Counted from the first letter of the stretch, positions 2,874 to 56,010 are shown. The stretch: DNA of 64,000 nucleotides from Candidatus Bathyarchaeia archaeon (GCA_035542975.1 DATKKK010000040.1:13857-77856); one strand, 5' to 3'. Notes: generated by a model not told the origin, from the letters alone. Numbers and translations: made by a program.

Positions 2874-3167
2874 CTAGAATCGTCTTCTCTTCATGCGCAT
2901 GTGCCGCTCGCTTTCCGCTCTGACTTTCACGATGCCCCTGTGAACCGCACACGAAACACAGTAATATTTCGTGTCTACAGGCGCAGCGATATACGTGCCC
3001 TTCTGGCGAAGCTCCTTCGCCAACTGAGCATCAACGATCGAAAGCCTGCGAGTTGATTTCTTAGCTTTGTCCCGCGGCACCATCGAACCGCAACCAGCGC
3101 ACTGTACAGTACCGCCGCTACCTTTACTGCCTTTGGATCTTCCACGACTTTTTCGTTTAAACGGCAA
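2874..3167 (-). CDS. rps26e: 30S ribosomal protein eS26
   Basis: MPFKRKSRGRSKGSKGSGGTVQCAGCGSMVPRDKA...YYCVSCAVHRGIV: basic N-terminus plus the CxxC...CxxC zinc ribbon typical of eS26. Confidence 0.85.
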   Translation of the reverse strand: MPFKRKSRGRSKGSKGSGGTVQCAGCGSMVPRDKAKKSTRRLSIVDAQLAKELRQKGTYIAAPVDTKYYCVSCAVHRGIVKVRAESERHMRMKRRRF

Positions 3168-3211
3168 ATTCTCGCCTCAAATTGACTCCACAACTAAATA
3201 TGGTGGCTTAT

Positions 3212-4099
3212 TTATATATCTGTTCTCAACTTCAGGAGCGCAGCAATGTTAGCCTGCGCATCAATCTTAGGAATAATCTTGCCGCTTGATGACGTAAACA
3301 ACGTCGTAACTCCTGGACCATGACCAGATGAAACACAGTTCGTATGCACGACGATGCCGACAGATACTGCGCCCTGTCGGTAAATTCTACCGTAAGAATG
3401 GTCTGCGTCTATAATAGCCACAAGGTCTCCTAACCGCAAACTTTCAAGCCCATACTGCTTGCTAACTCTTTTATCGAATAGCTGGATGTCTGAGTCGCCT
3501 GAATATGCTTGATTCATTCCCAGACCTGAACCTATTATCGCTGCTGGAACAATATGCGTGACTGGAACCTCCAGTTTATCGACTTTAGGCTTCGGTTTCA
3601 AAACTTTGAGAAAACGCGGGTCAAGGTTCATCACCGTTATCTCCGGAAAATCCAGAAACTTTAAGCCAACGCCAAAAGCCTTCACGAGAATCTTGTCGCC
3701 TAGCAAAAGCTTCTCAAGAGTTTCTGGAGCAAAGTCCATCAGCACGTGGTCTACTCCGCCGTGTTTTCCGGTAACCACACCTTTCGCGCCTTTTGCATCG
3801 CCCGTAACCACGGTTGCCTCGTTTCCAACGCATGAAAGCACGTTAAAAGCAGTGTTCGCACCCTGCCCAGAACGCGCATCGTTTTCCTTGTTTTCCACGC
3901 TTACGCCAGGCTCAACATGATCTGCCTGCCATCCGCACGCAGGGTCGCCGACTCTAACGTTGTAGGTGATTCCTCCGACGCTTGGCAAAACCATAGGCTT
4001 GCCTTCGGCAGAGACATTGTAGATGTTTTTGATAACTGGGCTGACTACTTCGCCGACGACTGAGAGTTTGACGAGTTTATTTTCGTTCGTTTTTAGCAT
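3212..4099 (-). CDS. Conserved hypothetical protein (DUF4438-like by recollection)
   Basis: 295-aa soluble ORF with clean coding character (...GITYNVRVGDPACGWQADHVEPGVSV...GKHGGVDHVLMDF...). The family name is unverified. Confidence 0.55.
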   Translation of the reverse strand: MLKTNENKLVKLSVVGEVVSPVIKNIYNVSAEGKPMVLPSVGGITYNVRVGDPACGWQADHVEPGVSVENKENDARSGQGANTAFNVLSCVGNEATVVTGDAKGAKGVVTGKHGGVDHVLMDFAPETLEKLLLGDKILVKAFGVGLKFLDFPEITVMNLDPRFLKVLKPKPKVDKLEVPVTHIVPAAIIGSGLGMNQAYSGDSDIQLFDKRVSKQYGLESLRLGDLVAIIDADHSYGRIYRQGAVSVGIVVHTNCVSSGHGPGVTTLFTSSSGKIIPKIDAQANIAALLKLRTDI

Positions 4100-45478: not shown

Positions 45479-48226
45479 CTATGGTCCTTTCTGTCCGTAA
45501 TGCGCTATTATTGTAACGAGATCGAGGATGTCAATTTTTCCATGTGGAGATGCTATATCTGCTTTCGAATTCCAGTTTGATTCTCCCAATGTGGAGCCAT
45601 ATATTCCTGATACTATGACTACATCTTGAATGTTAACGACTCCATCATTGTTCAAGTCGCCAAGTATCAGTGAAGCTCGAGTCAGAAACTCGCTTTGAGT
45701 AAGTTCACTATTCGAAGTGAAAATATATTCGAAGTTGCCATCACCATTTGGATCCACTCTAACGATAACACCTTTTTCACCACGAGAAAGAGCATTCCAA
45801 TCAATAGTGTATTGATAGATTACATCAGTTGTTACAGGGATCTCGATGGCAGTAAACGCAGAGAATTTTTGATTGTCGTCTTCTTCTGTCAGATTTCCTA
45901 AAAAGGCAGATAAATTGTATACACCAACATCAGTGCCTTTCAGAAAAACTTGGTAGTTGCCAGCAACAGGGAGAGGAATTTCTATTAATTGTGGAGAAAT
46001 CCCATGACCGCTATAAAATGCCTCAGGTATTTCGTTGACCTCTCGTTGGGTCATGAAGTCAAAACCTACACGTCTTCCTTTGCTATCCACAACCAACAGA
46101 TCTGCTGATGAATCTGCCATTACATGCAAAAACTTTTCGCAGAGAACAGTGGGTGCAGGTCCGGATGTTAATTCCATTCGGTCTATGCGCACTTCCGTAA
46201 GATCAATTGTCAGGTTGCCGTCAGAAACACTTTCACCCATGTCTGATACCTTTGCCCACGTATAGAGTTGTGCTTCGAAAATCCAACTGTACTTATGACC
46301 TACTTCAAGATTTAAGAGACCTTGAATAACGTATTGAGAATCATTGAAACTCTTTGAATCTCCACCATAACTGTCTAAGGACGCGAATTCTTGGTCTGAT
46401 TGATAGTGGTAAATGTCCAAATCCTCTTTCCAAATTTCTGTTGAAGTTGTCTCGTCGTAGACTCGAAGACTGGCGTTGAAAAACAACCCTTGGCTTATCG
46501 TGCTAGCTGAAAGTTTGGATGTGAAAGAGATAGCTGACCACGTTATAAGTCCATTGACATTGAATGTTGCTTTTGCTCTTGATTCCCCAAACCAATTATT
46601 GACCCACGAATCTTCAAATGCTACAGTTGCAAAAGCTCTGCTATCTCCTCCAAGGGCTGACCATGTCCGCGCTACAATCTTTCCTTTTCCACTTGACTCA
46701 TCAACCGCCAAATCATGCGACGCTTGTGCCGCTCCGAAGGATTCATGCCATCCTGTTCCAGGTGGTGTTGAAAGTTGAAAGGGTGGATTGAACGTTTTGA
46801 GGGCAGGTGTGGCGTTCAAGGAAATTGGGGTTGTGTGTGAAAGAGTGCCGCTGGTTCCTGTCACGTTTAGTGTATAGACTCCAAGCGTTGCTGTGTTTTC
46901 AAGGGCGACCGTCAGAGTGGAGGTTTTTGAGCCTCCTATTTCGGGTGTAACAAACTGAGCACTTAATGATGCCGTAATCTTTGATGGTGTACCTGTTAGG
47001 TCTAGTTCGACTTGGTGGTTAAAGCCGAACATTGAGGTTATGGTAATAGTTGATGCACTTGAATTGCCTTGCTGAATTGATAACAAAGCTGGAAAAGCCG
47101 TGACTAAGAAGTCTGGCGTTGGTTTCCATGGGTTTGTGAGAGGGTAGCGATCTTTGTTTATTCCGCCTATTTTGTAGGAATGATCTAATATGCCATCACT
47201 GCCTGTTTCATTTTGATACGATCCGCTATATGAGTCCACATCTGCATAGTCACTCCAATAGTTTCCGCCAGATGGATAGTCGTTGTCCCAAGCGTTTGCA
47301 TAAGCTCCAGCCTGAGATTCTAAACGCACTTGTTGCGAGTTACTTACTAGATTGTTATGGTAAATGTTGTTGTTGTATGGATATTCAGGTCCGTAGAGCC
47401 AGATACCCTTTGAATTGTGCGTTATATTGTTTCCAAAAATGTTATTGTCCCAGCAACATGCAAGCCAGATTCCGTAACCACTGTTTGCAAACGTATTTCC
47501 GAAGATATTATTGTGCATAGATACCAACACTATGATGGCCTCTTCACTGCCTGCTACATTGTTTCCATAAAGGAGGTTGTAATTCGAAAAACTCCACACC
47601 GCGATGCCTCGATTATTGCTTTTTATAGTGTTGCCATATACGATGTTGTGTTTCGAGCTGGAAATAAAGAGACCTGCACTATTACTTGCTATTGTGTTTC
47701 CAGAGACACTATTGTCTGAAGAAGAACCAAAAGCGATGCCGTAATCCCTGTTTGCTGTTATGTTGTTTCCACAAATACTATTACTTGAAGAGGAAGCAAA
47801 GTAGATGCCTTCATTATTGTTTGTTATGTTATTTCCAGAAATGAGGTTGCTTGAAGAGGTTCTAAAATCGATGCCATAGTTAAAACCTTTTATGTTCACG
47901 TTTTGAATTGTCACATTGTTTATTCCGGATAAATAGAATCCGTCCCCGCTTCCAGAGCCTTGAAGGATGTAGCCGTTTCCGTCAATTTTTATGTTTTTTT
48001 TCTCAACCACAATAGAACCATTAATGTTATCAGCGAAGGTGTAGGTAATATTGTCGACGGTTGAGATGGGAATGCCTGAAGGGTCGATGCTTCCATCCAC
48101 CCTAATATAAATGACTCCACTCGCTCTGACCGGCTCAACCTTGAAAGCTACTTCCAAAATTCCAATAATAAGAATAAATAGAATTATCCCGGAAGTGGCT
48201 CTCTTAACCAAGTCTTCTCTCTCCAA
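45479..48226 (-). CDS. Large secreted/surface protein: signal anchor, parallel beta-helix (PbH1/NosD-like) repeats, Ig-like and beta-rich middle, C-terminal dockerin-like module
   Basis: 915 aa, TTG start. GIILFILIIGILEVAF anchor. About 10 repeats of the type NNITNNNEGIYFASSSSNSICGNNITANRDYGIAFGSS. C-terminus GDLNNDGVVNIQDVVIV...GKIDILDLVTIIAHYGQKGP. Confidence 0.8.
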   Translation of the reverse strand: MEREDLVKRATSGIILFILIIGILEVAFKVEPVRASGVIYIRVDGSIDPSGIPISTVDNITYTFADNINGSIVVEKKNIKIDGNGYILQGSGSGDGFYLSGINNVTIQNVNIKGFNYGIDFRTSSSNLISGNNITNNNEGIYFASSSSNSICGNNITANRDYGIAFGSSSDNSVSGNTIASNSAGLFISSSKHNIVYGNTIKSNNRGIAVWSFSNYNLLYGNNVAGSEEAIIVLVSMHNNIFGNTFANSGYGIWLACCWDNNIFGNNITHNSKGIWLYGPEYPYNNNIYHNNLVSNSQQVRLESQAGAYANAWDNDYPSGGNYWSDYADVDSYSGSYQNETGSDGILDHSYKIGGINKDRYPLTNPWKPTPDFLVTAFPALLSIQQGNSSASTITITSMFGFNHQVELDLTGTPSKITASLSAQFVTPEIGGSKTSTLTVALENTATLGVYTLNVTGTSGTLSHTTPISLNATPALKTFNPPFQLSTPPGTGWHESFGAAQASHDLAVDESSGKGKIVARTWSALGGDSRAFATVAFEDSWVNNWFGESRAKATFNVNGLITWSAISFTSKLSASTISQGLFFNASLRVYDETTSTEIWKEDLDIYHYQSDQEFASLDSYGGDSKSFNDSQYVIQGLLNLEVGHKYSWIFEAQLYTWAKVSDMGESVSDGNLTIDLTEVRIDRMELTSGPAPTVLCEKFLHVMADSSADLLVVDSKGRRVGFDFMTQREVNEIPEAFYSGHGISPQLIEIPLPVAGNYQVFLKGTDVGVYNLSAFLGNLTEEDDNQKFSAFTAIEIPVTTDVIYQYTIDWNALSRGEKGVIVRVDPNGDGNFEYIFTSNSELTQSEFLTRASLILGDLNNDGVVNIQDVVIVSGIYGSTLGESNWNSKADIASPHGKIDILDLVTIIAHYGQKGP

Positions 48227-48317
48227 ATGATACTCAAGTTAGCCCAGATAGATAACACTTTTGAAACAATCTTCTATCGAATTGAAAAGAAGTTGCTTTT
48301 GTATTCACAACAAAATC

Positions 48318-48335
48318 CTAGTTGAGCTCAACTAG
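48318..48335. promoter_or_regulatory. Perfect 18-bp palindrome CTAGTTGAGCTCAACTAG in a divergent promoter spacer
   Basis: Seen directly, between the start of the 915-aa surface protein (48226) and the glycerate kinase start (48445). Confidence 0.5.
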
Positions 48336-48444
48336 TGCTCAAAATGTAGCGCGCGGCAGACTAAATAATCACATTGTTAAGTTTATTAGCATTAACTTAT
48401 TACACTTACGCATCAACCATGAAAAACCTTAACATGGGTTACAC

Positions 48445-49821
48445 ATGATAACGATAGAAAACAAACAACAACTCATCGAAAACGGCGAGACACCGTTAAA
48501 CCGAAAAGCCAGAAAGCTAGCTCTCGAAAGCTTCGAAGCCGCGTTGAACGCTGTTGACTCGAAGAAAATAGTAAAATCAAGGCTTCATCTGAAAGATTCG
48601 ATGCTCAAAGTGGACGGTTACTCTTTTGACTTGGAAAAATTTAAGCACGTTTACGTGGTGGGTGGTGGCAAAGCAAGTGGTTCGATGGCTGAAGGGTTGG
48701 AAGAGGTTTTAGGCAATCGGATAACGAAGGGAATCGTGAATGTGCCAAAGGGAAGCAAACTGAAAACACGAACAATATTGCTCCACGAAGCCAGTCATCC
48801 GATGCCTGATGAACATGGCGTGGACGGCACGCGTCGCATTGTGGAGATTGCCGAGCAAGCAGAAAAAAACGATTTGATTATTTGTTTGATTTCAGGTGGC
48901 GGCTCAAGCCTCATGCCGTTGCCACGTGGAGGAATCTCGATCTCCGACAAGAGGCTGATTACAGACGCTCTGCTCAAGAGCGGAGCCACGATAAACGAGA
49001 TTAACACTGTTCGCAAACACACATCTGATTTTAAAGGCGGCTGGCTTGCGAAAAAAGCCTATCCCGCTACCATCCTGAACTTGATTCTTTCGGATGTGGT
49101 TGGCGACCCGCTAGATTTTATTGCCTCAGGTCCTACGGTTCCTGATTCCACGACATTTAGTGACGCGTTGAATATTCTGAAAAAGTACAAGTTATGGGAG
49201 AAAACGCCAGAATCAATAAAGAATGTGCTGCTGGAAGGAGAAAAAGGCATAATTCCTGAAACGCCTAAAGCAGGTGACGAAGCCTTCAAGAATGTTGTCA
49301 ATGTTGTCATCGGCAACAACAGAGTCGCAGGTTTAGCAGCTTGTCAACAAATGAAAACTTTGGGTTTAAACACGTCATTGTTGACGGCGACGATGGAAGG
49401 CGAGGCTCGCCAAGTGGCAAAACTGCTAGCATCAATCGCCCGTGAAGCTTCTATTTCAAACAATCCTGTTGCGAAACCAGCAGGCATAGTTGCAGGCGGA
49501 GAAACGACCGTGACGGTTGTTGGGAAAGGTCGGGGCGGCAGGAATCAGGAGCTGGCTTTGGCTGTCGCGTTGAAGTTGAAAGGTTTGGATGGTGTGGTTC
49601 TGGCTTCGCTGAGCACGGATGGTGTTGACGGTCCGACGGATGCGGCTGGAGCGATAGTGGATGGAAAAACGCTTGCCCGAGCAGAAAAGATGGGGTTAAA
49701 CGCGGAAAAGTTTCTAGCTAACAACGATTCATTCACGTTCTTTTCCAAGCTTGGTAACCTTATCTTTACTGGGCCTACAGGCACGAACGTCAACGACATC
49801 ACCGTGATGGTGTCCGTGTAG
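48445..49821 (+). CDS. Glycerate 2-kinase (MOFRL / DUF4147 family)
   Basis: ...VYVVGGGKASGSMAE...LISGGGSSL...(MOFRL) ...GGETTVTV.GKGRGGRNQELALA...LASLSTDGVDGPTDAAGAIVD. Confidence 0.85.
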   Translation: MITIENKQQLIENGETPLNRKARKLALESFEAALNAVDSKKIVKSRLHLKDSMLKVDGYSFDLEKFKHVYVVGGGKASGSMAEGLEEVLGNRITKGIVNVPKGSKLKTRTILLHEASHPMPDEHGVDGTRRIVEIAEQAEKNDLIICLISGGGSSLMPLPRGGISISDKRLITDALLKSGATINEINTVRKHTSDFKGGWLAKKAYPATILNLILSDVVGDPLDFIASGPTVPDSTTFSDALNILKKYKLWEKTPESIKNVLLEGEKGIIPETPKAGDEAFKNVVNVVIGNNRVAGLAACQQMKTLGLNTSLLTATMEGEARQVAKLLASIAREASISNNPVAKPAGIVAGGETTVTVVGKGRGGRNQELALAVALKLKGLDGVVLASLSTDGVDGPTDAAGAIVDGKTLARAEKMGLNAEKFLANNDSFTFFSKLGNLIFTGPTGTNVNDITVMVSV

Positions 49822-49841
49822 GTTTCGAGGAGTAGAACGCG

Positions 49842-50111
49842 GTGATTGTGTCAGTCAAGTTTGTCGGCGTCTTCCGTAGCCTATCTGGCAAGAGCAAACT
49901 TGGTCTCAAACTTGCAAAGAACACGATTTTGAGGGAGGTTATAAAGAAGATAATTGAGGAATCACCCCAGCTTACGCAGGCGTTGAGTAATCCTAAACCA
50001 AATATGCTTGTCCTCGTTAACGGAAGAGAGATTAGCGTTTTAAACGGGTTAGAAACTGTTGTTAAAGCAGGAGACGAGCTGGTTTTTGTTCCTGTCATGC
50101 ATGGAGGCTAA
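49842..50111 (+). CDS. MoaD/ThiS-family ubiquitin-like small protein ending in Gly-Gly
   Basis: 89 aa, GTG start after GAGGAG. ...MLVLVNGREISVLNGLETVVKAGDELVFVPVMHGG*. The stop overlaps the start of the next gene. Confidence 0.75.
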   Translation: MIVSVKFVGVFRSLSGKSKLGLKLAKNTILREVIKKIIEESPQLTQALSNPKPNMLVLVNGREISVLNGLETVVKAGDELVFVPVMHGG

Positions 50112-50901
50112 GAAGCGGTTGAGGCTTTATGCAGTAAAGACAAAAACCATAACGGTCAATGACAACCTCACAGAAGTGATTCTTGAAGCGTTGAAAAAGC
50201 AAGACTTGCAGTTGGAAGATAACGACGTGCTTGCCTTAGCCTCAAAGATCGTGTCCTACGCTGAAGGACGACTGATAAAATTAAGTGAGATTAAGCCTTC
50301 TGGAAAAGCCAAAGAACTCGCAACACAATATTCATTGAAGCCAGAATTTGTCCAGCTAATCTTACGTGAAGCGGAGAAAATTTATGGCGGAGTCGAGAAG
50401 GCTGTTTTGACGCTTAAGAATAGTGTTTTGACGGCTAACGCGGGAATCGATAACAAGAATGTGCCTGAGGACTATGTAGTTTTGTGGCCAAGCGAGCCAG
50501 AAAAATCGGCGAAACGCATCAAGGAAGAGATTCGGCGCAAAACGGGAAGACGAGTCGCTGTTTTGATCGTGGACAGTGGTCTGATGCCGCTTCGCATTGG
50601 AACGGTTGGGTTGGCTTTGGCTGTTGCTGGGTTCAAGCCGATAAGAGACCACAGGGGTAAAAGGGACATTTATGGAAAACCGATAATGATTACGAGGCAT
50701 GCAGTTGCAGATGATTTGGCTTGTTCGGCGCATTTGCTGATGGGCGAGGCGACCGAGAAAACTCCAGTGGTCTTGATTAAGGATGCGCCAGTAGATTTTG
50801 ATGAAGGAATATATGGTTCAAAAGACTTGATGATTCCGTTCAACGAATGCCTGTTCATGTCTACTTTTCTTCGCAGCTTGCATGGTTCAGAACAGGCATG
50901 A
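50101..50901 (+). CDS. CofE-like (F420-0:gamma-glutamyl ligase family) protein
   Basis: Start taken at the ATG at 50101 (MEAKKRLRLYAV...). ...DVLALASKIVSYAEGRLIKL...LTANAGIDNKNVP...LWPSEPEKSAKRI...VAVLIVDSGLMPLRIGTVGLALAVAGF...ADDLACSAHLLMGEATEKTPVVLIKD. Confidence 0.75.
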   Translation: MEAKKRLRLYAVKTKTITVNDNLTEVILEALKKQDLQLEDNDVLALASKIVSYAEGRLIKLSEIKPSGKAKELATQYSLKPEFVQLILREAEKIYGGVEKAVLTLKNSVLTANAGIDNKNVPEDYVVLWPSEPEKSAKRIKEEIRRKTGRRVAVLIVDSGLMPLRIGTVGLALAVAGFKPIRDHRGKRDIYGKPIMITRHAVADDLACSAHLLMGEATEKTPVVLIKDAPVDFDEGIYGSKDLMIPFNECLFMSTFLRSLHGSEQA

Positions 50902-51595
50902 GTTTTGCATCCTTCAAAACCTTATGCAACGAAACTCCAATCAAGGCTGAGAAAACTGCGATTATTGCTCTTTCTACTGGATAGTAAACCATGGTAACTC
51001 CCCATGTGCTTAGCCAATAGCTTAAGTCGGCTGTCAAAATCAGCTCGAAAGTTAAAGAACCTGCAATTTGGCCTGCTAAGGTTGAGGTCAGACAGGTTAC
51101 TAGGAATGCGACGACAAGTTTTGAATCGTTAGTCGAGTTTAGTGTTTTAGTAGATGTGAATGGTAAAGGCAACGTTAGTATGACTAGCCCGATTATTTGA
51201 AACCATAAGTACATGGGAAGAAGCCAAAGTGGTCCAATAGTGGGATAGAAAGCGAGAAAAAGCAGAAGCAAAAGATAGAAAATTACTGAGACGGTTCGCT
51301 TGCTGATGCGAATCATACCGCTACAGAACGTAGCGGCAACGCCTGAAGCAAGACTTGGCAGAGCAAAGGAACCAAAGAAAAACCCTATTATCCCGCCAAA
51401 CAACGCTGACAACGTGCCTATGTAAGGACCTAGGATTATGCCTACCAACGGCGCCATCATCGCCGCCGCAGTTATCGCTTGCCCGGGTAAGCCGATTATC
51501 GGAGAGATTCTGATAAAGCCAAAAACAACGTACAATGCCGTGAAGGTCACGGTTAGGGCTAAATTCTTCGCTGAAAGCCTCGCTTGCGCGGTCAT
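50861..51595 (-). CDS. Polytopic membrane protein (ECF-transporter S-component-like)
   Basis: 244 aa, about 6 TM; N-terminus LALTVTFTALYVVFGFIRISPIIGLPGQAITAAAMMAPLVGIILGPYIG. The assignment is tentative. Confidence 0.5.
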   Translation of the reverse strand: MTAQARLSAKNLALTVTFTALYVVFGFIRISPIIGLPGQAITAAAMMAPLVGIILGPYIGTLSALFGGIIGFFFGSFALPSLASGVAATFCSGMIRISKRTVSVIFYLLLLLFLAFYPTIGPLWLLPMYLWFQIIGLVILTLPLPFTSTKTLNSTNDSKLVVAFLVTCLTSTLAGQIAGSLTFELILTADLSYWLSTWGVTMVYYPVERAIIAVFSALIGVSLHKVLKDAKLMPVLNHASCEEK

Positions 51596-51662
51596 TTTGT
51601 CGTCAACCCTGTGTTTTTTGTGGAAAGCTAATATTTTGAAACCCTTTTATAAATGAAACATT

Positions 51663-52457
51663 ATGCCTCGCTCAATAGTTACTTTGACGACGGATTTTGG
51701 GTTGAGAGACTCTTACGTGGCAGAGATGAAAGCCGTAATTCTGAGCATAAACCCAAGCACGGTTATTGTGGATGTGTCGAATGAAATAGAAAAATTCAAC
51801 ATAAGAATGGGCGCGTACACGTTGGCTTGTGCAGCTCCTTACTTTCCAACGGGCACGATTCACGTAGCGGTCGTAGACCCTAATGTTGGAACAAAACGCA
51901 AAGCCATACTGGTGCAAACTGAGCGAGCATATTTCATCGGACCCGACAACGGTATACTAGCTCTTGCAGCAAGAAATCAGAGCATAAGGCATGTTTATGA
52001 AGTATCGAACAGAAAACTGATGCTGTCTAAGGTGTCAGGCACTTTTCATGGAAGGGATATTTTTGCACCCGCAGCCGCCTATCTGGCAAATGGCGTTCCT
52101 CCAGAAGATTTTGGAACAGAATTGAGGGAAATCGAAAAACCAGCCTTCGCAAACGTAATCAGACAAACTAACAGGTTGATAGGCGAAGTTGTTCACATAG
52201 ATGGTTTTGGTAACGTGATAACAAGTTTTTTGGTAGAAGATGTTGAGTCCATGAAAGCAAAAGCTGTCGTAAACATCAAGCTTAACGATGTCCGCTTCAA
52301 ATTAAGGCTTTGTGAGACGTACGCAGACGCAAAGAAGCAGGAACTGTTTGCCATAATAGGAAGTCACGGCTTTCTAGAAATTTCAGCGAACAAAGGCAAC
52401 GCCGCTCAGAAATTTAAAGTTAAAAGCGGAGACAAAATCTCTCTGCTTACCCCTTAA
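51663..52457 (+). CDS. SAM hydrolase / SAM hydroxide adenosyltransferase (DUF62) family
   Basis: IVTLTTDFGLRDSYVAEMKAVILSINP...IHVAVVDPNVGT...FIGPDNGIL...FHGRDIFAPAAAYL. Confidence 0.85.
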   Translation: MPRSIVTLTTDFGLRDSYVAEMKAVILSINPSTVIVDVSNEIEKFNIRMGAYTLACAAPYFPTGTIHVAVVDPNVGTKRKAILVQTERAYFIGPDNGILALAARNQSIRHVYEVSNRKLMLSKVSGTFHGRDIFAPAAAYLANGVPPEDFGTELREIEKPAFANVIRQTNRLIGEVVHIDGFGNVITSFLVEDVESMKAKAVVNIKLNDVRFKLRLCETYADAKKQELFAIIGSHGFLEISANKGNAAQKFKVKSGDKISLLTP

Positions 52458-52542
52458 ACCTAAAACCGCAAATCATGTTCAAGGATTAACCGAAATATCA
52501 TCGTGCTTGAGCAAATTCCAAGCATTGGAATTAGAAGCATCA

Positions 52543-52579
52543 GTTGAACCTATTTATAGGGGGGGGTAGGTAGCCTCAG
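52543..52579 (+). repeat. Copy 2 of the promoter-like repeat, extended version
   Basis: gttgaacctatttataggggggggtaggtagcctcag, in the convergent spacer between DUF62 (end 52457) and nadM (stop 52604). Confidence 0.6.
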
Positions 52580-52603
52580 AGAGAGTAGGTGAACGCAGAA
52601 AAA

Positions 52604-53128
52604 CTAGATTTTGTCGCTTTTGTTCAAGTCTTTAAGCCTATTAATTCCGTCTATCTCTTTTATAAACGCAGCCACACTTTTCGGAATCAGCTTCTCCCAA
52701 CTTTCATCTCTGATCATTTTTTCTCTGATCTGGGTTGAAGAGTAAACTTTCCTGTCATAAAACTCGACTTTCTTAACCTTGTAGCCAGCTTCCATGAACA
52801 GTCGATGCGTCAACGGCTCATTAGAAAAAACTACTTGAAACTTTGGCGTGTAGCCTTCGAGCGCTGAAACCCACATCATGTGCAGACGCACGTCAGGAAC
52901 AGGCACAATCCAAACTCGATCGCCATCAATTTTAGCCTCCTCCAAAGCCCTGCGAACCATGACCAACCGTTCGCCAGCCGTAAACGGGTTAGCAAGCTCA
53001 TGACTGTACTGAGCACTGCCGATGACGATTACAGCTTCGTCAACTTCTTCCAGAATCTTCTTCACTACGCTGAGATGTCCAAGGTGAAAAGGCTGAAACC
53101 TCCCGACATAAAGCCCACGCTTAACCAT
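52604..53128 (-). CDS. nadM: Nicotinamide-nucleotide adenylyltransferase (archaeal NadM type)
   Basis: Start taken at the ATG at 53128: MVKRGLYVGRFQPFHLGHLSVVKKILEEVDEAVIVIGSAQYSHELANPFTAGER. Confidence 0.85.
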   Translation of the reverse strand: MVKRGLYVGRFQPFHLGHLSVVKKILEEVDEAVIVIGSAQYSHELANPFTAGERLVMVRRALEEAKIDGDRVWIVPVPDVRLHMMWVSALEGYTPKFQVVFSNEPLTHRLFMEAGYKVKKVEFYDRKVYSSTQIREKMIRDESWEKLIPKSVAAFIKEIDGINRLKDLNKSDKI

Positions 53129-53168
53129 CAAACACCACTGTTTCCACGTACTAGCCGCCGAGCTTTTA

Positions 53169-53762
53169 TCATTTGCGATAATCAACCTTTTTCAGCACAA
53201 GCTCAACAGGAAAAACCTGCAACTTCCCATCTTTCAAAGCAACCTCCCGTTTAGAAGTGTAGCCCCTCTTCTCCCGCCTCAACAACGCAACCTTCATGGG
53301 TAAACCACCACCATATCCGCCTAGACTAAAATCAGAACAAACAACCCTATGGCACGGAACAAGCGGCGCAAAAGGATTCCTAGCATTAACGTTGCCAACT
53401 GCTCTTGCGCCTCCACCAACCGCCTTGGCAATCAGACCGTATGAAGTGGCATAGCCTATTGGAATCGAATACACTGCTCCAAGCACTTTCCCAGTATACT
53501 TCGGCAAATGTTCCATAGCAAAAGAAAAACGTGAAGAAACATCCTTTCCATCATACACATTCTTCAAAACAGCAACCACACGGTTACCGAAAGCCGAAGG
53601 CTTTTCAACTTTCTGAAAAGTAATCTTGCGTGGCATGCTTCTCAGAAGGCCTTCCTCGGTTTCCTTTCTATCTGGATCAAACCACGTTGCAAAAATCTTT
53701 TCCCTTTTGTAGGCAACTCCAAACCAGACGTTTTCAGCTTCTTTGACGTAAACCTCTACCAA
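53169..53762 (-). CDS. ogt: Methylated-DNA--protein-cysteine methyltransferase (Ogt/MGMT family)
   Basis: C-terminal domain ...ATSYGLIAKAVGGGARAVGNVNARNPFAPLVPCHRVV (PCHRV active site). TTG start. Confidence 0.8.
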   Translation of the reverse strand: MVEVYVKEAENVWFGVAYKREKIFATWFDPDRKETEEGLLRSMPRKITFQKVEKPSAFGNRVVAVLKNVYDGKDVSSRFSFAMEHLPKYTGKVLGAVYSIPIGYATSYGLIAKAVGGGARAVGNVNARNPFAPLVPCHRVVCSDFSLGGYGGGLPMKVALLRREKRGYTSKREVALKDGKLQVFPVELVLKKVDYRK

Positions 53763-53790
53763 ACAGCTTCACCCGTCACAGTATCTGTAG

Positions 53791-53810
53791 GACATTAAGT
53801 TTAATAGTTT
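53791..53810 (+). repeat. Left 20-nt direct repeat GACATTAAGTTTAATAGTTT (putative att core)
   Basis: Perfectly repeated at 55991-56010. The preceding GTA is also shared. Confidence 0.85.
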
Positions 53811-53956
53811 AGCGTTGGCGGCATCGCCCACAAATTCCCCTCTTTCTGGCGCGCGCAACCGAGTATTAGAAAATCGACTTAAAGACAGAAAAATGGGTAT
53901 TTTACTGAGCTATTATGGTGAGGTAAAACTCTATCATAAAAAGAAGAAAAAAAGGG

Positions 53957-55240
53957 CTATTGGTGTTCTCCGTAATGCGCTGTACAGGTGACTAGGTCGA
54001 GTATGTCTATTTTTCCATATGGAACAACTAAGTCTGCTTCTGGAATCCAGTTCCGCTCTCCTTCTTTACAGCCGTAAATTGACGCTATGGCAACTATGTC
54101 GAGTATGTTAACGGCATCATCGAAATTTACATCTCCAAATAGGAACTTTGGGACACCCTCGACACTACTTGGAAGGTCCACGGCACAATCTAATCCGTTC
54201 CACGGTGGCCAGGGGTTCCCTGGGTGTGGGAACCCGCTGATGGTTAAGTCGATTATGCCTAATTGAAGTGCATCAACTGTGAATGACGGGGGAAGTTCGC
54301 ATGTAGCGTTGAAGTGCACTACGGCTATGCGTCCCTGCCCCTCGACTGGTGTGTGGGTTCCGTCGGCAGCTGGAAGTCCGATGAAGCATATCCAAGCCAA
54401 GCCCGTTGCGTCGTTGGTTTCGTTTTTGATTATGAATACTCCCCCCGGCCAAAATGAAGCGAACCAGCTGTCAGGGTCAACTGTAACGCCTAGCCCATGT
54501 AAAAGAGTTGAGTTGTAAGTCAACTTGAACTCGAAGCCTGCAACATCCCATTCTGGGCTTAGGTCTCCGTGGAGTAGATTCATCAGCGGTATGTTCACAT
54601 TGAATGTGTGGTTATAGACAGGGTGATAGGTGGTTGGTGATACTTTGAGCAATGGTTCTGGCGAGTAGATGTGTTCTAGTGGAAGAATTGTAACCTGCAT
54701 GCTAACGTCGTCATGGGGTATTGGGTTACCACTAGCGTCTGCGAGTGTGGCTGAGGTTATTTGTACATTGAAAACAGCCGCGTCTTCACCTGGAGCTGGT
54801 TGCTTTACGATCACAAACTCCATGTCGAAGCAACTTGCTGTACCAGTGAATGGTGCAGCAGGTGACAATGAAGCTTCAGCAACCCAGTACATGGTTCCAG
54901 CTGCGGAACCCGGCATGTTTGCTGTTTCGTCAACGTCGTTTTTGAGTGGGGTCGTAGGCGAGTTTAGCGGTAGGCGCTTGTTGTGGCCAACGTAGTTTAT
55001 CCATTCTGGGTTCCAGCCAATCTGGATGTCAACACCGTAGAGTCCAGTGACGTTTATCCATCCGTCAATCGTGAAGTGAGTTCCAACGCATGAGGCCGAT
55101 CCGAAGACTTCTGTGGTAAGACCTGTTGTGTGATCTCTGATTTTGAATGATGGGTTTGGTCCTGCTTTGGTGATTTGTATGCCAATCATTAAGGCACTCA
55201 CTTGAAGCATTATTATCATACATAATGTTTTCTTCGACAA
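53957..55240 (-). CDS. Secreted protein with two cohesin-like modules and a C-terminal dockerin-like module
   Basis: Start taken at the TTG at 55240 ((M)SKKTLCMIIMLQVSALMIGIQITKA signal peptide; ATG alternative at 55219). Two ~150-aa beta-rich modules. C-terminus GDVNFDDAVNILDIVAI...GKIDILDLVTCTAHYGEHQ. The upstream 74 codons of the track ORF look non-coding. Confidence 0.7.
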   Translation of the reverse strand: MSKKTLCMIIMLQVSALMIGIQITKAGPNPSFKIRDHTTGLTTEVFGSASCVGTHFTIDGWINVTGLYGVDIQIGWNPEWINYVGHNKRLPLNSPTTPLKNDVDETANMPGSAAGTMYWVAEASLSPAAPFTGTASCFDMEFVIVKQPAPGEDAAVFNVQITSATLADASGNPIPHDDVSMQVTILPLEHIYSPEPLLKVSPTTYHPVYNHTFNVNIPLMNLLHGDLSPEWDVAGFEFKLTYNSTLLHGLGVTVDPDSWFASFWPGGVFIIKNETNDATGLAWICFIGLPAADGTHTPVEGQGRIAVVHFNATCELPPSFTVDALQLGIIDLTISGFPHPGNPWPPWNGLDCAVDLPSSVEGVPKFLFGDVNFDDAVNILDIVAIASIYGCKEGERNWIPEADLVVPYGKIDILDLVTCTAHYGEHQ

Positions 55241-55588: not shown

Positions 55589-55970
55589 GAGAACGCTTAC
55601 GATGCAGCTTTGTACTCCGTGCGCAAGATAATTGCGAAGAAGGCGAATAGGCTGCAATACCTAAAGATACATTTCCACACCTTCAGACACTTCCGAGGAA
55701 CCTTCGGCGTGTAGAACGGCGTGCCGCTTCCCGACATGCAATACAAACTTGGTCATAAAACTTTGATGGCAACTGGAAAATACGTTCATTGGGTGCAAGG
55801 AACTTTCCCACCCGACAAACAATAACTACAAATTCGCAGCCGTAGACACGCTTGAGGCTGTGGGCAAACTTGTCGAAACTGGTTGGCAATACGTTACGAA
55901 CATGGACGACGGTGGAAAGATAAAGGAGTCTTTCGGCGTCCAGCATGATAAACAATGTCGCCACAAGTAA
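55589..55970 (+). pseudogene. Tyrosine recombinase/integrase fragment (C-terminal catalytic half; stops and a frameshift)
   Basis: Own translation: ...IAKKANRLQYLKIHFHTFRHFRGTFGV*(TAG 55712)NGVPLPDMQYKLGHKTLMATGKYVHWVQGTFPPDKQ*(TAA 55823), then shifted frame ...YKFAAVDTLEAVGKLVETGWQYVTNMDDGGKIKESFGV... to 55970. HxxR and LGH-x9-Y box II motifs are present; the N-terminal half is absent. Confidence 0.7.
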
Positions 55971-55990
55971 ACTATTACGCACACGAGTAC

Positions 55991-56010
55991 GACATTAAGT
56001 TTAATAGTTT
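55991..56010 (+). repeat. Right 20-nt direct repeat GACATTAAGTTTAATAGTTT
   Basis: Identical to 53791-53810; lies 25-34 nt upstream of the psmB start. Confidence 0.85.

Follow-up and report, generated by a model that had tools for sequence, protein, structure and literature searches.

A probable non-cellulosomal cohesin–dockerin system in Candidatus Bathyarchaeia, with one candidate component acquired on an integrative element

Proteins A and B and their modules

The window analyzed here is a 64,000-nucleotide (64-kb) stretch of DNA from a Candidatus Bathyarchaeia archaeon (GCA_035542975.1 DATKKK010000040.1:13857-77856), and it encodes two proteins of a putative archaeal cohesin–dockerin system. 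Protein A is an open reading frame (ORF) of 915 amino acids (aa) at 45479..48226 on the minus strand, and protein B is an ORF of 427 aa with a TTG start at 53957..55240, also on the minus strand (positions are counted from the first letter of the window). An earlier note, made from the sequence alone, had read the pair as a candidate self-assembling archaeal surface complex, in which a secreted beta-helix protein and a shorter protein with two beta-rich, cohesin-like modules end in the same atypical dockerin, and in which one component is carried on a mobile-element remnant. Both ORFs are present as that note had them, together with the quoted tails and, in B, the beta-rich motifs, and the interpretation as a whole finds support at the level of homology and fold.

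From its N-terminus, protein B reads as a signal peptide, a first and a second cohesin, and a dockerin, which is the architecture of an adaptor scaffoldin. Protein A reads as a signal peptide, a NosD-like beta-helix, an immunoglobulin (Ig)-like domain, a region at aa 475-694, a beta-sandwich at aa 695-850 and a dockerin. The ORF that holds B remains open upstream to 55462, and one gene caller places its start 54 codons earlier; the 427-aa start is shared by the close homologs P0002 and P0003 and by the NCBI call on the 80.6-kb source contig, and from this start the N-terminus is a typical signal peptide, MSKKTLCMIIMLQVSALMIGIQITKA/GP. The N-terminus of A comprises a hydrophobic segment followed by VRA/SG. 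Both proteins are thus predicted to be exported via N-terminal signal peptides.

The dockerin module of A occupies 45482..45670 (minus strand; aa 853-915) and that of B 53960..54145 (minus strand; aa 366-427). Their resemblance, put at about 55% by eye in the earlier note, is computed as 33 identical positions out of 60 (55%; BLASTP E 1e-24), with second helices that are near-identical, and six-frame scans of the window with tblastn and with profiles or hidden Markov models found no third copy of the tail. A profile of 26 tails taken from homologs (A2), against which tail B scores 116 bits, produces full-length matches to solved dockerins in the PDB, namely 2y3n_B, the dockerin of the Bacteroides cellulosolvens type II cohesin–dockerin complex (E 9e-9), and 2b59_B, the dockerin of C. 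thermocellum CipA (E 3e-8). Pfam Dockerin_1 (PF00404) is matched at E<=1 by 25 of the 26 family tails, the best at 4e-8; tail A on its own reaches 21.8 bits against a cut-off of 22.9, and protein A alone, searched against the PDB with phmmer, retrieves 2y3n_B over aa 854-912 (E 4.5e-6). An AlphaFold2 (AF2) model of tail A, built from a 66-sequence alignment, has a predicted local distance difference test score (pLDDT) of 92.5 and two helices where expected. All 18 of its 18 top Foldseek matches in the PDB are dockerins, the best superposing with a root-mean-square deviation of 1.5-1.6 Å over 58-60 residues (template-modelling score TMq 0.71-0.74); the small size of the domain keeps the corresponding E-values weak, at 1e-3 to 1e-2. 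A protein search with the tail profile matched short fragments only, of 45-114 aa. Taken together, profile and predicted fold identify the tail as a dockerin homolog of an atypical kind, as had been surmised.

Where the tail departs from the canon is in its calcium loops. The first loop is canonical in both proteins (DLNNDGVVNIQD in A, DVNFDDAVNILD in B), in keeping with the calcium-binding F-hand that had been recognized in the first half of the tail. The second (DIASPHGKIDILD in A, DLVVPYGKIDILD in B), rightly described as degenerate, is a 13-residue variant: it exceeds the canonical length by one residue, contains a proline and lacks Asp/Asn at ligand positions 3 and 5, with positions 1, 9 and 12 staying in register. 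Set beside a pair of canonical 12-residue F-hand loops, with ligands at positions 1, 3, 5, 9 and 12, the tails of A and B therefore deviate in the second. Of the 207 dockerin modules that we classified, the second loop has the canonical 12 residues in 130 and takes the 13-residue form, D-[LIV]-A-x-P-[YW]-G-x-I-D-I-L-D, in 55; this variant sits on many different cargo proteins and is known here from an archaeal sample alone; canonical second loops also occur within the same family, in P0030 (ADLDNDGKIDILD) and P0053. Since the variant recurs on many cargoes and the family retains canonical members, it appears from these sequences to be a conserved, derived dockerin sub-type instead of the decay of a single gene. 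The dockerin of A and B is probably asymmetric, with one calcium site and a single binding orientation. Asymmetric dockerins with a single binding mode occur in bacteria such as Ruminococcus flavefaciens, and the A/B dockerin is like them in that one repeat has strayed from the F-hand and the internal two-fold symmetry is broken.

The two beta-rich modules of B lie at 54677..55153 (module 1, about aa 30-188) and 54158..54655 (module 2, about aa 196-361), both on the minus strand, and six-frame tblastn and profile scans found no second cohesin-family protein in the window. A database search with B returned 66 homologs, and 30 of the 50 that were aligned match the Pfam Cohesin family (PF00963), the best at 9e-20. 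The equivalent of module 1 in P0016 scores 35.1 bits, and the equivalents of module 2 in P0050 (31.9 bits), P0019 and P0054 score about 30-32 bits, all against a cut-off of 24.1. The B family profile likewise matches the ScaB cohesins 3l8q and 1qzn over positions 37-182, within module 1 (3l8q E 1e-4), and the cohesins 2vn5_A and 1g1k_A over positions 204-265, within module 2. In an AF2 model of full-length B, computed from the 50-homolog alignment with an overall pLDDT of 83.8, the two modules score above 95, module 1 running at 94-98 and module 2 mostly above 90. The best PDB match of this model in Foldseek is the cohesin dyad 3l8q, which spans both modules (E 2e-13), and single cohesins align to it with a TMt of 0.64-0.70, among them the Archaeoglobus fulgidus cohesin 2xdh (TMt 0.70, E 3.4e-6). 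Cohesins dominate the list, in which some integrin and adhesin beta-sandwiches appear too. Singly, the modules fit type I and A. fulgidus cohesins at least as well as 3l8q, and because the match to the dyad reflects its coverage of two modules, no type I or type II assignment can be read from it. The family-level Pfam matches and the fold mark both modules as cohesins, the resemblance that their strand pattern had first suggested. In cohesin 1 we also note that B, at about 54950-55000 of the window (aa about 90-95), has 8-11 residues fewer than all 15 of its closest homologs, the gap appearing in alignment A4 as …RLP-----------LNSPT in B vs …IPVE---TYPDGILHSPT in the homologs.

Protein A carries its right-handed beta-helix at 47117..48118 (minus strand; about aa 37-370). 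Pfam assigns this region to NosD (E 1.7e-34) and Beta_helix (E 2.1e-23), with the best stretch at aa 67-229, and the PDB search returns the NosD structure 7o0y over aa 117-331 (E 2e-5), which upholds the NosD/PbH1-type identity given to the partner protein at the outset; aa 32-369 further align to P0189. A has more than 2175 relatives at E<=1e-10, with PF00404 present in 36 of the 120 listed. It is one of a great many NosD-like surface proteins with a beta-helix, and the helix is probably a glycan-binding, adhesive or polysaccharide-active module. The Ig-like repeat domain that follows, at 46805..47116 (minus strand; about aa 371-474; PDF…TGTSGTLSH), is 39-50% identical to at least eight tandem copies in P0188, a protein of 1583 aa on a 340-kb contig that also bears a PF00963 cohesin, and is apparently a widespread stalk module among such surface proteins. 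A weak match to the NCBIfam model "invert_tail" covers aa 432-470. The segment at aa 695-850, called a beta-sandwich by eye, aligns to the C-terminal part of P0189.

Genomic linkage, family and integrative element

The genes of this family keep telling company. Seven loci round cohesin-family genes (98.9 kb in all) hold 16 dockerin ORFs and 21 cohesin-family ORFs, compared with a single dockerin ORF, and not one cohesin, in 109.6 kb of control sequence, made up of 16 loci of related genomes that had been retrieved for an unrelated reason. Dockerin genes are thus enriched about 18-fold beside cohesin-family genes, or about 15-fold when two seed proteins bearing both modules are left out. Tandem arrays of cohesin and dockerin genes occur in L001, L005, L006 and L007; L001 holds a transmembrane-anchored protein of two tandem cohesins (Coh-Coh), fusions of a cohesin to a dockerin (Coh-Doc), PKD-CARDB-Doc proteins and small dockerin proteins. 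No other indirect evidence speaks as strongly as this linkage for the cohesins and dockerins acting in concert. In the relatives the dockerin is attached to M14 carboxypeptidase-CARDB, NosD and PKD-CARDB proteins. At one locus (L002 7954-11599), a Coh-Coh-Doc homolog of B, P0006, is followed by a small 112-aa gene and then by an M14 zinc carboxypeptidase-CARDB-dockerin protein, an arrangement that hints at peptidases as cargo and would fit the protein-degrading lifestyle proposed for Bathyarchaeia.

Three forms can be told apart in the family of B. The majority form consists of Coh-Coh and a C-terminal domain of about 240 aa, for a total of about 620 aa; in a second, Coh-Coh is followed by a hydrophobic helix and then a basic stretch at the C-terminus (P0024, P0029, P0032, P0039 and P0055); and the third, Coh-Coh-Doc, comprises B, P0002, P0003, P0006 and P0015. 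Fusions of cohesins with this dockerin recur more widely, in P0002, P0003, P0006, P0015 and P0040-P0048. Every homolog with a named organism, and each of the five loci that an alignment of the 16 closest sequences (A4) retrieved from GTDB species genomes, belongs to Candidatus Bathyarchaeia or Bathyarchaeota, which bears out the archaeal lineage that had been proposed, and some of the Bathyarchaeia relatives already bear the NCBI names "cohesin domain-containing protein" and "dockerin type I domain-containing protein". A full-profile search of 1.84 billion representative proteins yielded 2217 clusters at E<=1e-3, of which 388 pass E<=1e-30, counts that are partly due to the C-terminal domain alone, which is common to other proteins. 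A scan of viral contigs found no relatives of B and no sign of a virus-borne family.

How, then, did B reach this locus? It lies between two 24-nt direct repeats, attL at 53787..53810 (GTAGGACATTAAGTTTAATAGTTT), seen in a junction alignment with the empty site described below, and attR at 55987..56010 (GTACGACATTAAGTTTAATAGTTT), which stands 25 nt upstream of the GTG start of a proteasome gene. The repeat, GTA[G/C]GACATTAAGTTTAATAGTTT, has only two copies in the window, alike at 23 of 24 positions where none would be expected by chance, and the 2176 bp between them hold only B and an integrase fragment. The latter, at 55589..55825 on the plus strand, is the C-terminal part of a tyrosine-recombinase pseudogene with a stop codon inside; it matches Pfam Phage_integrase at 30.2 bits (cut-off 27.1; E 4.6e-7) over profile positions 114-167 of 172 and retains the motifs HTFRH and LGHKTLMATGKYVH (LGH...Y.H). 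A 126-kb metagenome contig, L020, matches the left flank at about 90% identity and the right flank at 91.5%, and at its positions 3150-3290 it has a single copy of the repeat, with a methyltransferase-like gene and the proteasome gene adjacent, that is, an empty site (the DNA_binding_1 family of the former gene was assigned via the near-identical contig L003). The three-way junction alignment has the form expected of attL, attB and attR. Integrase, attachment repeats and empty site, the marks of a tyrosine-recombinase integrative element, are therefore all in evidence: B arrived through site-specific integration, after which most of the integrase was lost, and the C-terminal remnant with its stop codon marks the element as defective. 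The mobile-element remnant suspected by the earlier note is thereby confirmed. The G+C content of the element, 0.463, is not distinct from its surroundings.

The site itself is a conserved one. A 20-nt core of the repeat, GACATTAAGTTTAATAGTTT (55991-56010; L009-L025), recurs exactly upstream of the proteasome gene in metagenome contigs, where the flanks have only about 65-78% identity. Some 30 nt ahead of the start codon the core has a TATA-like TTTAATA, and it is hence probably the proteasome promoter, reused as an integration site. No transfer RNA (tRNA) gene, and no Rfam family at the gathering threshold, was found anywhere in the 64-kb window, so the attachment site is not a tRNA gene. On another Bathyarchaeia contig, L011 (974-1244; 1.8 kb of contig), the core is followed, 24 nt on, by a 75-aa ORF of a truncated dockerin (…AKWNPNADINGNGNVSLSDLSIMAKYFNQHYP) in place of the proteasome gene, which may reflect a second, different insertion at the same site. 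The contexts of P0002 and P0015, on contigs that are short, contain neither an integrase nor the core.

Assembly model and competing explanations

Considering the homology, the fold and the modular architecture, we regard it as likely that A and B are components of a non-cellulosomal cohesin–dockerin system that assembles proteins on the cell surface. B would act as an adaptor scaffoldin, offering two tandem cohesin sockets and its own dockerin plug, and A as a cargo, presenting a NosD-like beta-helix and Ig-like domains on a dockerin of the same type. The dockerins of cargoes such as A would first insert into the cohesins of B-type proteins; subsequently, the dockerin of B would plug into a cohesin on a further scaffoldin, which could be another copy of B or a membrane-anchored Coh-Coh paralog, with the outcome that several cargoes are tethered to the cell. 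Who binds whom, the calcium stoichiometry and the biological role are matters that we infer.

Several observations weigh against this interpretation. First, B itself has no match to PF00963 even at E<=1, and in the full-length proteins Dockerin_1 scores 11.8 bits for A and 13.6 bits for B, below the cut-off of 22.9, so that membership in the two families rests on family profiles and predicted structure. The PF00963 match that the earlier note had proposed looking for is absent from B's own sequence and present in the homologs of both modules, and the structural similarity to cohesins is there too; for PF00404, the family profile and the tail model match solved dockerins, and the full-length scores fall short. 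Second, the second calcium loop lacks two ligands, which might impair function, and the single-chain AF2 model of B renders its own dockerin at a pLDDT of 31-54 and is thus mute on docking. Third, a profile scan of the 64-kb window revealed no anchoring scaffoldin, and A and B carry one and the same dockerin subtype, so that a strict hierarchy of enzyme, adaptor and anchor with distinct specificities is not evident. Fourth, A and B are 5.7 kb apart with housekeeping genes between them, and B is a recent insertion, of 2.2 kb, absent from a relative that is about 90% identical, from which it follows that A does not depend on B. Since B is accessory in this sense, a direct and obligatory partnership between the two is uncertain, and we lean somewhat against it.

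The fourth point bears directly on the alternative that survives best, namely that A and B are a true dockerin protein and a true cohesin protein that are not each other's partners, their actual partners being encoded elsewhere in the genome and their closeness being coincidental. Besides the insertion and the intervening genes, near-identical copies of A exist in other assemblies, one of them sharing a contig with the aminotransferase of this window, and relatives have many cohesin and dockerin genes per cluster, which makes alternative partners probable. However, the dockerins of A and B are of the same subtype, down to the near-identical second helix, and the cohesins of B are orthologous to those that stand beside dockerin proteins of this very family at other loci. 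We take this alternative seriously without favoring it.

A rather unlikely explanation, to which the shared dockerin subtype also speaks, is that B polymerizes with itself, its own dockerin entering the cohesins of further copies of B, so that chains or a lattice would arise in which A-type cargo has to compete for the sockets. With two sockets and one plug, B is built for such an arrangement, and no distinct adaptor-type dockerin was seen among the 207 modules sampled; the paralogs that possess a membrane anchor or a C-terminal domain are nevertheless more conventional acceptors. Weakest of all is the notion that the tail is a calcium-binding stabilizing or wall-anchoring module, engaging the S-layer or glycans and not a cohesin, as has been suspected of many orphan dockerins, a notion which might draw on the degenerate second loop and on the many such dockerins that are not known to have a recognizable cohesin partner, and which is made improbable by the presence of cohesins, by the roughly 18-fold enrichment of dockerin genes beside them, by the recurrent cohesin–dockerin fusions listed above and by the want of any hydrophobic segment or sorting motif in the tail. 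A sorting signal was separately considered for the tail and ruled out, as it has no hydrophobic segment, adopts a confidently predicted dockerin fold and occurs internally in a 610-aa protein of L001.

Relation to known systems and significance

Archaeal surface assembly by cohesins and dockerins is already known, and the Bathyarchaeia proteins add a member to it and no new principle. Among the nearest precedents are the A. fulgidus proteins, which are likewise archaeal, secreted and non-cellulosomal, without a glycoside hydrolase, and whose cohesin–dockerin pairs are verified to form specific bonds, as summarized in PMC9012536. In comparison with them, the present system belongs to the Bathyarchaeia lineage, sets two tandem cohesins and a dockerin in one protein (B), has a degenerate second calcium loop and a NosD-like cargo, and its binding is predicted. 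The premise that such pairs are rare in archaea and known mainly from A. fulgidus is outdated: anaerobic methanotrophic (ANME) archaea encode as many as about 80 cohesin and 149 dockerin domains in a genome, among them proteins that join a single dockerin to several cohesins, 5 at most (PMC5244752, PMC9012536), and NCBI names cohesin and dockerin proteins in Bathyarchaeia itself. The likeness to ANME extends to multi-cohesin-plus-dockerin proteins, many dockerin-bearing surface proteins and a proposed role in adhesion or display (Timmers 2017, PMC5244752; Chadwick 2022, PMC9012536); ANME differ in that they belong to another phylum and in that the main cargoes described are substrate-binding proteins of ATP-binding cassette transporters. 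An ANME-related viral contig encodes a NosD-like protein beside a dockerin domain (PMC13452462). Our search of the literature turned up no paper that treats the family in Bathyarchaeia, the variant loop or the presence of such a gene on an integrative element.

Cellulosomal adaptor scaffoldins share with B the order of cohesins followed by a C-terminal dockerin (Acetivibrio cellulolyticus, 3l8q), and the X-dockerin of C. thermocellum CipA (2b59, 3kcp) is among the best dockerin matches of the tail. Identity to the bacterial modules is low, however: the cohesins share 9-18% of their residues with them and the dockerin 25-32%, and unlike bacterial scaffoldins B has no carbohydrate-binding module (CBM), X module, surface-layer homology anchor or glycoside-hydrolase cargo. 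A further difference from bacterial cellulosomes is the use of one dockerin type on both adaptor and cargo. A cellulosome was ruled out as a reading of the locus, there being no glycoside hydrolase or CBM domain in A or B and the cargo of the relatives being NosD, PKD/CARDB and M14 peptidase proteins.

Bathyarchaeia are among the most abundant archaea of anoxic sediments, are thought to use extracellular polymers and are largely uncultured. A plug-and-socket system of the kind proposed would explain how such cells organize extracellular functions without a conventional cell wall, by tethering to the cell beta-helix proteins, PKD/CARDB proteins and one or more carboxypeptidases. To the non-cellulosomal cohesin–dockerin systems on record, the present case adds a large family, a dockerin variant that recurs, and a clear instance of an adaptor gene brought in by an integrative element. 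A bolder idea, speculative and on present evidence doubtful, is that the lineage employs a one-calcium dockerin of its own, with the 13-residue proline-containing second loop and a single binding orientation, on adaptors and cargo alike, that Coh-Coh-Doc proteins such as B self-assemble into extended networks at the surface, and that adaptor genes move between strains on small integrative elements that target the proteasome promoter region; if true, the composition of the cell-surface "toolkit" would be horizontally exchangeable between strains.

Finally, the C-terminal domain of about 240 aa that replaces the dockerin in most Coh-Coh paralogs deserves a word. It spans columns of about 440-708 in A4, carries the motifs PWPCDDPEY and IPKFARAG, and found no PDB or solid Pfam match, only weak ones to MG2 and CARDB. 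It may be a surface-anchoring module; it is also the last domain of numerous unrelated proteins about 1000 aa long, and at L001 3657-5486 it comes after an internal dockerin.

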